A DNA stretch of 64,000 nt. It comes from Octopus sinensis. Its lineage: Eukaryota. The DNA is taken from positions 48,744,464 through 48,808,463 of the forward strand of contig NC_043011.1 in assembly GCF_006345805.1 (NCBI RefSeq), given 5' to 3'. Below are positions 1 to 42,542 of this stretch, piece by piece. The translations under genes were made by a program, and so were the position numbers. How positions within the stretch are numbered: the first letter of the stretch is position 1; each line of letters begins with the position of its first letter. The notes beneath the pieces are model-generated. The model did no database searches and was not told the DNA's origin. It saw only the letters and a list, made by a program, of their open reading frames with translations.

Positions 1-275
1 GCCAGCCTCGTCTGGCCCCCCGTGCCGGTGGCACGTAAAAAGCACCATCCGATCATGGCCGTTTGTCAGCCTCGTCTGGCACCTGTGCAGGTGGCACATA
101 AAAAGCACCCACTACACTCACGGACTGGTTGGCATTAGGAAGGGCATCCAGCTGTAGAAACACTGCCAGATCAGACTGGGCCTGGTGCAGCCTTCTGGCT
201 TCCCAGACCCCAGCTGAACCGTCCAACCCATTCTAGCATGGAAAACGGACGTTAAACGATGATGATGATGATGAT
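1..275 (+). mobile_element. Family D: 3' end of RTE-type LINE/LINE-derived element, cut by window start
   Basis: 63-bp units (gtgccggtggcacgtaaaaagcacc), then ggttggcattaggaagggcatccagctgtagaaa...ggacgttaaac(gat)n; many copies in window. Confidence 0.8.
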
Positions 276-305
276 ATATATGTGTGTGTAGATATATGTA
301 TATAT

Positions 306-5360: not shown

Positions 5361-6162
5361 GAGGTTTCTAAAATTTTCCAAAAATGTATTTATGATCAAT
5401 AAAATTCAAGACTAAAATGAAAGCATTAGAGATTAAAAAAAAAAAAGAAAGACTTCTACAATTCTAAACTGTAATTCAGAGATTAAGTCATATATATCCC
5501 CTGTTTGCACTACTGAACAGCTACCCCTCCCCCTTTTGTCTGTCTCTCTCTCTCTCTCTCTCCCTCTCTCTCTTCCTCTCTCTCTTCCTGACATAAATCT
5601 GGTAGCCGTTTCACCAAGCTGTTATATTAACTTCATTCTAGCCCATAACAAATGCTGCTTCCTTGCATTCTACAATGACTTATAGCTAAATCCGTAGACT
5701 GATATATCCTATTAATAAATGTTGTGAAGTTTTAAGTTGATCTCTGCAATTCTTGGACTTTTTTTTTCTCTCTCTCTCTCTCTTTCCTCTTTTTTTTTTT
5801 TTTTCCATGAATGGGCTAAATTATTTTGACTGGTGTATAAATGATAGAGATAAGAAGATGGCTTATTTCACGTTCTTATAACATCTTTAATCTTGTCTAA
5901 AACTTAAAAGTACTTTCATCTTTCTAATTGGAGTGGAAAAACAACCCAAGAAAACTTTGTTTTTCACGATATTCTCATAAAGTTACACATAAACTATTCC
6001 GTGTTTACAACTTGAAGAGTTCCTGTTTTACTTTCATGCTGCTGGCGTGGCTGTGTGGTAAGAAACTTGCTTTCCAGCCACATGGTTCTGGGTTCAGTCC
6101 CATAGCATGACACCTTGAGCAAGTGTCTTTTCCATTAGATTCAAGCTAACAAAAGCTTTGTG

Positions 6163-6548
6163 CAGTTCTATATTTAAGGGATGAGGAATTATGTACATTA
6201 TTTACATTATTTACATTTTATGGATATTTGTCCTCATCTTGTTTGTTGTTAACACAACGTTTTGGCTGATATACCCTCCAGCCACTATGACATATGCCCA
6301 TGGGCATATGGCATAGTGGTTAAGAGTGCAGGCTGCTAACCCCAAGATTCCGACTTCAATTCCAAACAGTGACCTGAATATTAATAATAATAATCATAAC
6401 AATGAAAAATACCTTAGGAATGGGAACCCAGGTTCGAAACTTCCCAAAGACACCTGAAGAAGGTTGGAGGATATATCAGCTGAAACATTGTGTTAACAAC
6501 AAACAAGACGAAGACAAATATCCGTCAAATGTAAATAATGTAAATAAA
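6163..6548. mobile_element. Fold-back non-autonomous element: inverted dimer of tRNA-like head + hammerhead-like motif (Penelope-like)
   Basis: 12-bp TSD aaaagctttgtg (6151-6162 / 6549-6560); central palindrome 6282-6319; outer arms complementary; second copy at 41996. Confidence 0.85.
6449..6494 (+). ncRNA. Minimal type-I hammerhead ribozyme-like motif
   Basis: gacac CTGAAGA a ggttg-gaggatatat-cagct GAAA c att gtgtt: both core boxes, stem I gacac/gtgtt, stem II; activity untested. Confidence 0.6.
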
Positions 6549-8699
6549 AAAAGCTTTGTGAGTGGATTAGATAGACAGGGACTGAAAGAAGCCCATCATA
6601 TATATATTTCTCTGTTGCTTCTGTCCCTCTGCCCTTCGTGACTTTTTCTCTCTCCTCCCACTATCACATGACCTGTGACCAGCTAAACCTCTCTCATCCT
6701 TTTTTCAGTTTTGCTGTCGACCAGGTCAGTCATGCTTCTTTCCACTCCTACACCTTTTTCCTACACAGGTTGCTGACTTCTTCCTTCATCTAGACTTTCC
6801 ATCTGCCCCTCTCTCATCTCTAGTCCTACCGCACATTTTCATTTTCTTTTGCATTACCCCATGTTCATCTGCCTGGCAGCTACGTGGCTTTTCTTTTTTT
6901 TTTTTGTATATGTATGACTATTATAATTATTTCATTTTGTCATGTCTGTTTACATCATTGCTCTGGACATTCATTAGCCATTCACAGTGGCTTTTTGCCA
7001 CTGGAAACTACCAAAGTGAAAATATCAATGATAAAAGGCAAATGAACTGGGATTAATCCATACCAAAAACTCCAGGTCTATAAACAGTGAAATATTGCAG
7101 TAAATGTTTCTTGTGTAATCTGAAGTCTGCCCTGACAAAACATCCTAAGATCAAAGGCATTCCAACCATGATCATCCCATCGTTCTCTCAAACACTGAGG
7201 AACTAGGACTACTTTATACTGTATTGTGTTCTGTCTTTATTAAACAAGGTTGTATATAATGTGAGAAAGATTTGGCTAACATTTCTAGCAGATCCAGTGA
7301 CCATGTAGAGGCTCGACTCATTTGTTGGCTAATATCGTAATACATTAAACATGATTCTGTAGTGATATGATTGAAAGGAACTTAGCTCTTTTATTCTAAC
7401 CAGCTGAGTCACAATCTTTAATTTGCAACATACTATTAGTTAAGATAAGTAAACGGTAGTTTAGGAAAGCCCACATATATATGTGTGTGTAACTGTAGTT
7501 GTATGTAATGAAGTCAACACAAAGATTGATTACCAGCCTAGAAGTAGACAGACAGGCTTGGCATAGCTGACCCAGTCCACTTAACTCTGAATAAATATAA
7601 TTATACAAAACAGTTCATCACTAAACAGACAGGAGCACAATAACTTTGTTCTGCGTTTCCTTAGCCTGCAGCACCACTGAATTCCTCAAACTCTTCGAAT
7701 AATATAACTTGGTGAAAGATGACATCAGCCAAACTGACTTATAACTATAATGCAAATATCTCTTAAGCTCTGGTCATAGCTTTTACAGATCAGCACTTGG
7801 CTGTTGTTGCAAGGCAATAAATTGATAAGAAATAAATCATTCTTCTGGATAGAAAGCCAATCTACTGCAGGCAACATTCTGCTCGTAATCTCATTCTTAT
7901 TCCCAAATGTTTGATCAAGGAAGAGATGCAACGTAGAATAAATTATTCTGATTATAATAAACAGAACAAAATGCTTGCAGTTGATTAGAACTCGTGTACT
8001 CATTTTAACTCAAGGCATAAAAGCAAAAGTCTCCAAACAGTTCTCTTAAATATCCAATTGTTTATCAGACACAGAGCAAATATGCAGTGGTTAGTTCAAT
8101 AGTGTAGAGTGACCAAGTGTACAAAAAAAAAAAAAACAACCTAGATGGTCTTGATACTATGGGAAATAAGGTAATAAATTAGAAAAATTCATTATGAAAT
8201 GGTGAGAAACATGTTTATCACAGTTTCTATTCTAGGTTAATTATCAATATTGTTCTTGTGTCAACAATATGTCAGACAAATGAAAGATACGATAAATATA
8301 AATTTTTTTCTTAAAAGGAGAAAAAAAAAAAAAAGACAAGAATTAAATGTTAACTCTTTGTTTATCATGATTCATGTTGGAGTTTTATTTTTTTTTTTTA
8401 AACTTTTCCTCTGAGAAAAAAAAAAAAAAATGAGAGAGGAAACTTCTGTACTTAGATATTATTTTTTTTTATTTTCTTATTGGTGATGTTGGCATTGCTG
8501 TTGTTGCTGCTGCAGACACCTCACAGCAATAAGAGTGATTTTCTTGCAAAACAGTCATCTATTTTTACTTCCAAGAAGAATACAAGAATCGATCTTTTAG
8601 AAAGCAATATGTTGTCGAAATATTCTTCATCGCATGTAGGTAGATGTACGTTTCCTCAGACAGGAATTCTCCACTACACACTCACACATGCAAACATAC

Positions 8700-39474: not shown

Positions 39475-40169
39475 GTTACCTGGTGGTGTGTATATATGTG
39501 AAATCATTTACGATATGGATAAAGAAATTATATGGTGGTCAAGATTTAAAAGATTGAAGTCAAACACTTTTCCTCTTTGACCAAGTCCTCATCAACTTCA
39601 AGTTCCACTTATAGAGCAATGTTAAGATGGAAAGGGTTGTACTGGCCTCTGTCATATTTGGAGAAAGACACATTAGAGTGCCCACTATAGCTCAAAAAGC
39701 TTTACTTTTAGTATGTTCCTGTAGGCAAGCAAACAGATGGGAGATGGCACTTGACCTAAGTAATCAGGGTACTTAAAGATATGAGGGGTACCTTGATTGG
39801 TCCTAGGTGACTCTATCTTTATTTGGACAACTCATTCAATTTCTTTTGTCCACTGTTGCTTTTCATATAACTTTTTAATGACCCCCCTCAAAGTCAATTG
39901 TTAATTGAACAAAGCATGTTACATGATTTTTATTAATTTTATTAACTTAGTTTATTTGATAAAGGCCTGTATGAGATTTCCTCTAATTTTATGACTCAAA
40001 ACTTTTTAATTTATGATGTTAATTTTCAAATTAAAACTTTCCATTAAAATTTTATGTAAGAGCCTTATGTTATATTTCAAACACCAGCTTAATAGGCAGA
40101 GGCTATTTTCTTAAATGCAGCTAAATTCTTTATTATTTTCAAAATTAATACAGATGCATGGACAATGCA

Positions 40170-40928
40170 AATGCAAAAGAAAACATCAAATTTAGAAGCA
40201 ATAGCTGCCAAACTAGGATTGAAAGTCAACCGCAACAAATCAAAAAATATGCGCATTAATGAAGAAGACAGCAAACGTATTAAAGTCGAAACCGGTGAAC
40301 TAGAGAATGTAGCTGAGTTTACGTATTTAGGTAGTAAGATAACGTTTACAGGTGGCACCGACGAAGATATTAAGACGAGAATAAGTAAGGCAAGGACCGC
40401 TTTTCACCGGTTAAAGAAAGTATGGAGCACAAGTGTAATTTCAATAAAGAACAAAATATGAATTTTTAACACTGATGTAAAAGCGGTGTTATTGTATGGA
40501 GCTGAGACATGGCGAACAACAGTTAAGTCAAATAAGCAAATACAATCATTCATCAACAGATGCTTGTGAAGTATACTTAAAATTAGATGGCCCAAACACA
40601 TAAACATAAGCAATATGGAGCTATGGCAAAGAACAAATCAAGTTTTGATTAGGGAGCAAATATTTAAGAAAAAGTGGAAGTGGATTAGTAGCACAATTAG
40701 AAAAGACACACCAAATGTAGCAAAAAGTGCTTTACAGTGGAAACTGGATGGATATAGACAGAGAAGTAGGCCTAAGAATTCGTGGTGGAGATCAACACAA
40801 AAGGAACTAGAAAAAGGGGGACATTCATGGCAGAGTATAAGTACAGAAGCCAAAAATTATGCGACATGGAATTCAGCTATAAGTGGACTATACGTTGAAG
40901 GGTTAAAGGCAGAAAAAGAAAAAACGAA
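40170..40928 (+). pseudogene. 5'-truncated RTE-clade LINE (RT C-terminal region), dead
   Basis: One frame reads KLGLKVNRNKSK..EFTYLGSKIT..DIKTRISKARTAF..VLLYGAETW..FINRCL*SILKIRWP..RQRSRPKNSWWR, with stops at 40459 and about 40567; TSD gcatg(g/a)acaatgca (40156-40169 / 40929-40942). Confidence 0.92.
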
Positions 40929-41995
40929 GCATGAACAATGCATTTCATTAGAAATATGCTCACAAAAGAGTTAAGAAAGATATGATGTAATGTTGATCTT
41001 GACAGGATTCGAACTCAGAAAGTAAAAGGAGATAATTAAATATAACAGAGCAATTAGTTGACCACTTTAGTGTTTCTGTCATTCCATTTAAAAGCACAGC
41101 ACACATTTCCTCTCAGAGACATTTGTGCTAGCTTTGATAAAAGGTATTTAAATTTCCTGCCTATTTCCTGCCATCAACCATAACACTTATTAAAAGATTT
41201 TCTGGTCCTTCATTATTTCATAATTAATCCTAATCACCTTCTAATTATCGCCGTACGTACTTCCTACATTTGACGAAAGGTATTTAAACTCTGGCTAAAT
41301 GACAAAAGATTCAATGAAATTTTGCAAAGTCTTTCACTGTTGCCGTTGTCATCATTCTCATCATTAGTCTTAGTTCAATGTCTATTCTTCGATGCTGGCA
41401 TAGGTTGAAGTTTGCCGAAGTAAATAGGAATTGAAATAAATTCTGACACTATAGTTCACAGAGAATAACATTCAATAACCAGCAGCCTTACATACTCGGT
41501 GGACATGTCTTCCATTCAACTTCGGCATTATCACTTTCAATTTGAAATAACATGTCTCTCTCTCTAACAATTCTTACCGAAAATTGGGACCTGAATTCAA
41601 TGAATTCTAGATTGAAATATGATTAATTCTTGAAAGTATTTTTAATCAGATTGCTTGATGCTGAAATAACTATAAAGTAGCGCTACACTCTGTGTACACT
41701 CTACTTTCTCAGTCCATTAGAAATCAGGAGAAATTTTAACTCAATTGTTAATGTTTAAATTAACAAGTGAAAACAAAATCAGTTTTCACTGTGAATGCTT
41801 TTAGTATTTCAATGTATTTTGCACAGCTATTATACCAATATAATGAATTAGTATTTTAGTTTTTGGTGTAGTACTAACTATCATATCAACATATGTGACT
41901 GCTATTCAGATATATTTTGTAAAAGTAACATTTTCCAATGCATTTTAGCCATATAACCACTATATCTTCATATGTGGTCAATATCTAATCTTTTA

Positions 41996-42173
41996 CAGTT
42001 CTATATATAAGAGATGAGGAATTATGTACATTATTTACATTCGACGGATATTTGTCCTCATCTTGTTTGTTGTTAACACAATGTTTTGGCCGATATACCC
42101 TCCAGCATTCTTCAGTTGTCTTTGGGAAATTTCTAACCTGGGTTCTCATTCCTAAGGTATTTTTTGATGTTAC

Positions 42174-42215
<42 letters not shown>

Positions 42216-42308
42216 GATTATTATTATTATTGTTCAAGTCACTGCTTGCAATCAAACTCAGAATCTTGGGGTGACCTGAACAATAACAATAATAACAACA
42301 ACAACAAC

Positions 42309-42357
<49 letters not shown>

Positions 42358-42542
42358 TTGAAAAATACCTTAGGAATGAGAACCCAGGTTAGAAATTTCC
42401 CAAAGACATCTAAGGAAAGCTGGCGAGTATATCAGCCAAAACCATTGTGTTAACAACAAACAAGATGAGGACAAATATCCGTCGAATGTAAATAATGTAA
42501 ATAATGTAAATAATGTAAATAATGTAAATAATGTAAATAATG
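41996..42542. mobile_element. Second copy of the fold-back tRNA-head/hammerhead element
   Basis: 13-bp TSD atctaatctttta (41983-41995 / 42543-42555); same left terminus cagttctatat; about 230-bp inverted arms; (aatgtaaat)x6 right end. Confidence 0.88.

Follow-up and report, generated by a model that had tools for sequence, protein, structure and literature searches.

This locus raises the question whether a repeat that begins like a tRNA gene and ends like a Penelope retrotransposon is a hybrid of two mobile elements or part of a single one. The repeat lies at positions 6163-6548 of a 64,000-nucleotide stretch of the Octopus sinensis genome (the window; contig NC_043011.1, positions 48,744,464 to 48,808,463 of the forward strand). 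The first-pass annotation read it as a palindromic, non-autonomous unit that joins the RNA polymerase III (Pol III) head of a short interspersed nuclear element (SINE) to a hammerhead-bearing Penelope 3' part and is moved by a Penelope-like partner. We found that the insertion is a solo pseudo-long terminal repeat (pLTR) together with an inverted, truncated pLTR of an autonomous Penelope-like element (PLE). The predicted partner exists and the 3' part is Penelope-derived, with the tail and the inversion being PLE signatures. A separate hybrid is not what we see, because the tRNA-like head sits in the autonomous element's own pLTR.

The same terminal repeat in an autonomous Penelope-like element

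We searched 2.72 Gb of genome sequence for copies of the family. The head-anchored set consisted of the first 70 of 1081 exact matches to a 26-nt head pattern, all on one contig (C1), and 13 of these copies extend upstream of the head into shared coding DNA. A search with this coding DNA yielded 30 loci encoding a reverse transcriptase (RT) and a GIY-YIG-type C-terminus, and in 29 of the 30 the head follows the stop codon of the open reading frame (ORF) after a short spacer. In a protein-anchored search all 30 loci examined belonged to this family, with the head present in 22 by a strict rule and whole or partial in two more. The element is laid out as head, (AAT)n, ATG, ORF (RT, GIY-YIG), stop codon, short spacer, head, (AAT)n and ORF start. 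The pLTR continues into the ORF: the ATG is at +122, and the hammerhead (+151..196) and the tail (about +245..275) follow in the same frame.

One locus, L222, is a complete, decayed natural copy made up of an inverted pLTR, a 5' pLTR starting from the head, the ORF and a 3' pLTR; direct and inverted pLTRs are combined in other loci as well. The column-majority of 73 fragments from 60 loci, taken from a multiple alignment, has 793 open codons after the tail, and the full ORF is ~830 codons. The RT matched PF00078 (E 1.4e-10), 33 homologs with an RT were found, and a protein named GIY-YIG endonuclease (P0038) matched at E 3.6e-21. The C-terminus has invariant Y, G, R, H and E in the alignment; the PF01541 profile gave no match to the ORF of locus L132. 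The nearest database protein, P0001 (847 amino acids), is 54% identical and retains the hammerhead-encoded peptide. On every PLE feature tested, the element is an endonuclease-positive (EN+) PLE, and domain order and likeness to the Anolis element PAc give a lead for its placement in the Penelope/Poseidon clade.

Could the short copies nevertheless form a lineage of their own? A non-autonomous SINE lineage with a tRNA head and a Penelope 3' end, spreading from its own short masters with PLE protein supplied in trans, would fit the excess of short copies: exact matches numbered 1081 for the head pattern and 5384 for a pLTR 3' pattern versus 423 for an ORF C-terminal pattern (reversed controls 0), counts that depend on pattern decay. 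A solo copy with intact boxes could also in principle be re-transcribed and internally primed. However, the same head belongs to the autonomous pLTR, and solo and ORF-linked pLTRs are indistinguishable. When 86 solo and 42 ORF-linked pLTRs were compared, none of 14 variable columns differed (lowest P 0.13); the distance between the groups was not raised (395 of 2000 permutations; 72 solo and 24 ORF-linked sequences), and the median divergence was 5.9% for solo and 6.9% for ORF-linked copies. The family is moderately old. The pLTR resembles a SINE2 element in its tRNA-related head with A and B boxes and in a 5' end fixed at the head; a separate non-autonomous lineage that shares only its 3' end was not observed, and we consider such a lineage very unlikely.

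Within the window, the insertion is flanked by a 12-bp target-site duplication (TSD), aaaagctttgtg, at 6151-6162 and 6549-6560. It splits a host SINE-like repeat, and other window copies of this repeat can be aligned to the two halves together, which then overlap by 11-12 bp. The opposed arms at 6198-6283 and 6462-6547 are 90% complementary, the central palindrome at 6282-6319 (19+19 nt) is 95% complementary, and a 34-bp tail at 6163-6196 occurs on the left side only. The right arm reads tRNA-like head, (AAT)n, hammerhead-like motif and AATGTAAAT repeats. In these points the first-pass annotation was accurate: the TSD inside a SINE-like repeat, the inverted left arm, the 38-bp palindrome with one mismatch, the left-only 34 bp, the A box and the degenerate B box all lie where it had placed them. 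The window copy is probably dead, because its B box, the closing pair of stem II and the stem III palindrome (ACAT for ACGT) are changed. The features are as follows.

6036-6162, plus strand: 5' half of the host SINE-like repeat, the insertion target; 16 other window matches, 75-84% identical
6151-6162, plus strand: left TSD, 12 bp; TSDs of the family are 9-17 bp, mode 12
6163-6196, minus strand: one-sided tail, made of the ORF-start sequence that separates the family's proximal 3' end from its distal one; runs straight into the ORF in L167, L185, L221 and L222
6163-6283, minus strand: inverted, 5'-truncated pLTR copy, from the tail back to hammerhead stem II
6282-6300, minus strand: short fold-back copy of the head, lengthening the native 12-nt hairpin at 6295-6306; the hairpin lies upstream of the head in ORF-linked copies
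6302-6377, plus strand: tRNA-like head, the 5' end of the pLTR and likely a Pol III type-2 promoter, by its tRNA score and by copies beginning here
6309-6319, plus strand: A box
6352-6363, plus strand: B box, degenerate here and intact in the family majority
6378-6403, plus strand: (AAT/AAC)n microsatellite, of varying length among copies
6420-6548, plus strand: the PLE ORF from its start through codon 43, with an open frame in the window copy; the same frame has 401 codons in the natural copy L221, and the peptide is conserved in the homolog P0001
6449-6494, plus strand: minimal type I hammerhead within the ORF start, mutated here, with a predicted cut after 6489
6549-6560, plus strand: right TSD; the host repeat continues to about 6600

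The host repeat belongs to an abundant SINE-like family, present at 6036-6162 and 6549-6600 and in 16 further places of the window. The pLTR family recurs at 41996-42505 of the window, in a second copy that again has two opposed arms, one of them with the tail. Two open frames at 40096-40974 resemble the C-terminal region of an RT of a long interspersed nuclear element (LINE).

Other PLEs were met in the same genome. The best 30 loci of a PF01541 search were rejected as family members; they come from other PLE families and have nothing in common with this pLTR, and one of them was used as a control. The loci L067, L068 and their relatives form a second, apparently young PLE family with a different pLTR, with intact-looking ORFs of ~781 codons in several places and 5029 GIY-YIG candidates. 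Three further PLE-type loci (L069, L244 and L247) have different hammerhead-like motifs, with inverted pairs in L069 and L244.

The tRNA-like head and the hammerhead motif

The reading of the head as tRNA-like was borne out. The column-majority of the head scored 17.4 bits on a hidden Markov model (HMM) of 42 tRNA sequences from the same genome, which represent Lys, Thr, Cys, Arg, Ala, Phe and Ser tRNAs only, versus at most 4.7 bits for 1000 shuffled sequences. The known A- and B-box consensus and tRNA spacing served for comparison, and the family majority has perfect A and B boxes at this spacing, although the cloverleaf is degraded. The A box starts at head position 8, which we take to match tRNA numbering. 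The loop of the window copy had been likened to that of tRNA-Ser(GCT); this resemblance is due to a mutation of the window copy, and the anticodon-like loop of the family majority is CTACTAA (64-69 of 70 copies per column). A search for a donor tRNA with a guessed motif returned only another copy of the element. An Rfam scan of the window copy and of L255 gave neither tRNA nor hammerhead at E<=10. Eight metagenome contigs carry relatives of 32-44% identity, most of them too short to include a pLTR, and gave no A/B-box match and no relaxed ARAGORN call; the viral and prokaryote collections held no relatives with DNA.

The hammerhead proposed at 6449-6494 stands as a motif: the Rfam scan did not recognize it, and the call rests on motif and pairing, inspected by eye in alignments and set against the published description of minimal hammerheads. 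The family motif consists of a 5-bp stem I, CUGA(U/A)GA, an extra A, a 5-bp stem II, GAAA and a palindromic ACGU. It fits the minimal PLE hammerhead of PMC4209133 (here and below, statements on published work refer to the parts of each paper that were at hand), with the PLE-type traits of a minimal type I fold, an extra nucleotide after A9 and a palindromic 15.2-16.2. The family hammerhead lacks a stable stem III and, following the description there, would need a sense-sense dimer. The inverted arm cannot serve as the partner because it holds an antisense hammerhead, and here only part of one.

Copy ends do not point to cleaved templates. The 5' ends of copies showed no pile-up at the predicted cut site, with 2 body ends in the +190..194 bin, and hammerhead-cleaved RNA was rejected as the template on this ground; a bump at +155..164 is an artefact of selecting copies like that in the window. 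Hammerhead cleavage is probably needless for insertion.

Copy ends, transcription and the origin of the palindrome

The head-to-head palindrome had been taken as the usual mobile unit. A search with the whole insertion gave 6472 candidates, 40 of which were scored; all 40 covered most of the query, a sample biased to palindromes. In the head-anchored set, an inverted 3' arm lies upstream in only 34 of 70 copies, cut at varying points and with varying junctions, and the other 36 copies have none. An idea that the palindrome itself transposes, its long hairpin transcript cleaving itself as a dimer, would suit the folding of the window copy as one long hairpin (-156 kcal/mol). It would also suit two loci ~143 kb apart on C1 (L054 and L055 of genome G000) that have an internally deleted inverted arm, its junction and the head variants in common but lie in different flanks. 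This composite may have been copied as a unit, and a start at the head does not explain such copying. Against the idea stand the copies lacking an inverted arm, the varying junctions, the antisense and partial hammerhead of that arm and the missing peak of 5' ends at the cut site, and we regard it as highly improbable.

What does recur is the TSD. TSDs of 9-17 bp with a mode of 12 scored in 23 of the 30 best-matching copies versus none of 90 displaced control positions, and are not a matter of chance. The tail is on the forward arm in 25 and on the inverted arm in 15 of the 70 head-anchored copies, and on both in none. A direct partial copy lies upstream in one copy (L109), and no head-to-tail tandem arrangement was seen among the 70. 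The 3' ends of 279 arms are bimodal, with 144 at +232..256, 133 at +272..291 and 2 between, and the two clusters correspond to about 120-129 and 152-160 nt into the ORF.

The 5' ends are sharp. In the head-anchored set, 57 of 70 copies begin within ~8 nt of the head (L053 is ambiguous) and the remaining 13 extend upstream by tens to hundreds of bases. In a set of 30 arms anchored at the 3' end and sorted by hand, 11 end at +104..195, 3 at +9..17, 10 at -11..+4 and 6 further upstream, so that 10 of the 16 arms that reach +4 stop between -11 and +4. A direct 5' pLTR precedes the ORF in 7 loci; in 2 of them it extends as far as the head, and in both it goes no further. A transcription start would be expected to produce such a stop. 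The same point is spanned by a native 12-nt hairpin, which a fold-back lengthens to at least 8 nt in 14 of the 57 solo copies, some of which have no second arm; an extension of the native hairpin by fold-back would explain the palindrome in the window.

The position of the hairpin, exactly at the copy ends, also suits a rival account in which the tRNA-like segment is a fossil piece of a SINE, transcription is by RNA polymerase II (Pol II), either from the same place or by read-through, and RT stops or snaps back at the hairpin. Pol III RNAs make poor mRNAs, and the Penelope promoter that has been studied is internal and was likened to TATA-less LINE promoters (PMC2377424). On the other side, the family majority has kept perfect A and B boxes at tRNA spacing in spite of the degraded cloverleaf; copies include the head in full and stop beyond it rather than ahead of it; and 41 of 57 solo copies have an A/C, A/T or G/T dinucleotide at -2,-1, in keeping with a fixed RNA end. 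We judge the Pol II account unlikely.

The sense strand of the 3.2-kb majority unit also argues against Pol II transcription: it contains no TTTT and about 30 runs of four A. TTTT is a likely Pol III terminator; among 28 distinct flanks behind tRNA genes of this genome, the first T-run is a T4 in 16. For the 2379-nt ORF, synonymous shuffling gave an expectation of 2.7 TTTT runs, with 159 of 5000 shuffles reaching 0; other expectations were 3.1 (140 of 5000), 3.9 (52), 4.1 (68) and 4.6 (31), and the absence has a P of about 0.006-0.03. Nine control PLE ORFs have 2-12 TTTT runs each, 56 in total versus 38.3 expected, and scaling by this ratio gives a P of about 0.002. The Phe content of the protein was not discriminating.

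Taken together, we favour as the probable explanation a PLE whose pLTR begins with a tRNA-like Pol III promoter and whose internal priming gives either solo pLTRs or long copies. Pol III would start at the head or a few bases before it, and the element's protein would nick the two target strands ~12 bp apart. The cDNA would then be primed internally, at two RNA sites separated by ~30 nt, in the way measured for PAc of the anole. With internal priming, a transcript that starts in the 5' pLTR would offer two priming regions: the one in the 5' pLTR would give a solo pLTR of 250-280 nt ending at the RNA 5' end, and the one in the 3' pLTR would yield long copies, most of them truncated. If one cDNA were made on each strand, two opposed arms would result, and just one of them would have the tail. 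A finished cDNA that snaps back on its native terminal hairpin and then joins the other cDNA would produce the 38-bp palindrome and the apparent deletion.

Several observations weigh against this explanation. ARAGORN called no heads at its default threshold and 10-12 of 71 at a relaxed one, and no clear parent was found among the 42 distinct tRNA sequences, the best being Arg-TCT. The evidence for a tRNA head comes from this genome's copies, with the closest sequenced relatives outside the comparison, and the head-anchored sample by design holds no copies that start inside the head. In any single copy, a fold-back is indistinguishable from a deletion within a full palindrome. The TTTT test was chosen after the head had been noticed, and runs of at least four G are equally absent from the ORF majority (expected 2.9-4.3, P about 0.014-0.05), a point that the Pol II account can claim, with A and C runs at or above expectation. 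The TTTT gap may thus come from a general lack of G/T runs or from selection for an unstructured A/C-rich RNA. An underpowered variant test gave 0 of 43 T4-creating sites versus 22 of 1565 others at the level of at least 15%. RNA sequencing data on L233 (three raw runs and one contig set) are unstranded, and their depth peaks at the pLTR and only mirrors copy number, so that they favour neither side. A Pol III transcript would also be uncapped, which makes its translation a difficulty for this explanation.

With these points counted, the sequence features still lead us to think it probable that Pol III initiates at the head. A stronger form is possible, though we hold it tentatively: an autonomous coding retrotransposon may have captured a tRNA-derived promoter, had its whole 3-kb RNA made by Pol III and its ORF purged of TTTT, and given rise to SINE-like solo pLTRs by internal priming, so that SINE and partner would be one entity.

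L233 also shows a frequent opposite-strand joint at 1673-1725, with 118-152 reads in each of the three RNA runs, which is possibly one highly expressed inverted copy in a related organism.

Comparison with known systems

Most of the geometry of this insertion is that of ordinary PLEs. PLEs can come with a copy that is inverted and 5'-truncated, and one of their ends can have a tail of 30-40 bp (PMC8557442), and inverted pLTRs, solo pLTRs, 8-10 bp TSDs and palindromes of 18 and 38 bp at pLTR 5' ends have been described (PMC3846280). Reverse transcription of PAc begins internally on its RNA, 111-118 nt into the ORF; the tail of PAc spans the interval from one start site to the other, and cleavage by its hammerhead can be dispensed with in vitro (PMC11167929). 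Our element is like the Poseidon element PAc of Anolis (PMC11167929) and Pen2/Pen3 of Adineta (PMC3846280) in its single RT and endonuclease ORF of ~830 amino acids, in a pLTR that takes in the ORF start with the hammerhead inside, and in an optional tail of 30-40 nt that corresponds to the distance separating two internal RT starts. It is also like them in inverted 5'-truncated pLTRs, solo pLTRs and junction palindromes (18 and 38 bp in Adineta). TSDs are 8-10 bp in known EN+ PLEs and 9-17 bp here. The palindrome, tail and hammerhead are ordinary; the tRNA-like head on a coding element is not. In the parts at hand, pLTR promoters of known EN+ PLEs are TATA/initiator-like or LINE-like, whereas here the pLTR starts with tRNA-like A and B boxes and the sense strand has no TTTT.

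In the text at hand the word "tRNA" occurs 0 times in PMC3846280, PMC4209133 and bioRxiv 10.64898/2026.07.22.740005 and once, on selenocysteine, in PMC8557442, and the portion of PMC6962438 at hand has nothing on a PLE with a tRNA-derived pLTR head. No such PLE was found in the literature covered, which did not extend to Repbase, Dfam, SINEBase, subscription journals or supplements.

If Pol III does transcribe the full element, this would contradict the assumption, as worded in the accessible part of PMC10886601, that autonomous retrotransposons must use Pol II, and would raise the question of how an uncapped RNA gets translated. In a weaker form, the fixed 5' end yields thousands of natural snapshots of PLE integration. 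The copies lend in vivo support to the pair of internal priming sites that was measured for PAc, and point to a sense-strand template since about 30 TTTT runs lie on the antisense strand. In addition, they show a route from PLEs to SINE-like repeats. The fold-back offers a simple origin for junction palindromes, which the consulted part of PMC3846280 ascribes to an antisense template.

A tRNA-type promoter together with a hammerhead is not new in itself. The schistosome SINE-like repeats Sm-alpha and Sj-alpha likewise have a Pol III-type promoter followed by a hammerhead (review PMC6765202); they are non-coding, often tandem units released by cleavage, and the review sections at hand mention no autonomous PLE with the same head. 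Animal non-LTR retrozymes (PMC7229834; bioRxiv 10.64898/2026.07.22.740005) are likewise short hammerhead units related to PLE pLTRs, with head-to-tail tandems and circular RNAs, whereas the copies here are dispersed, inverted and have a tRNA-like head. The TRIMp3 elements Cassandra, Helenus and Ajax (PMC10886601) also have a small RNA-derived Pol III promoter in a terminal repeat, proposed to come from insertion of a SINE into the repeat, and their autonomous partners must use Pol II according to that paper. TRIMp3 elements are non-coding LTR elements of 311-1263 bp, whereas the promoter-like sequence here lies in the pLTR of a protein-coding PLE. The new part is the head itself, with A and B boxes that are perfect in the family majority, at the 5' end of a pLTR.
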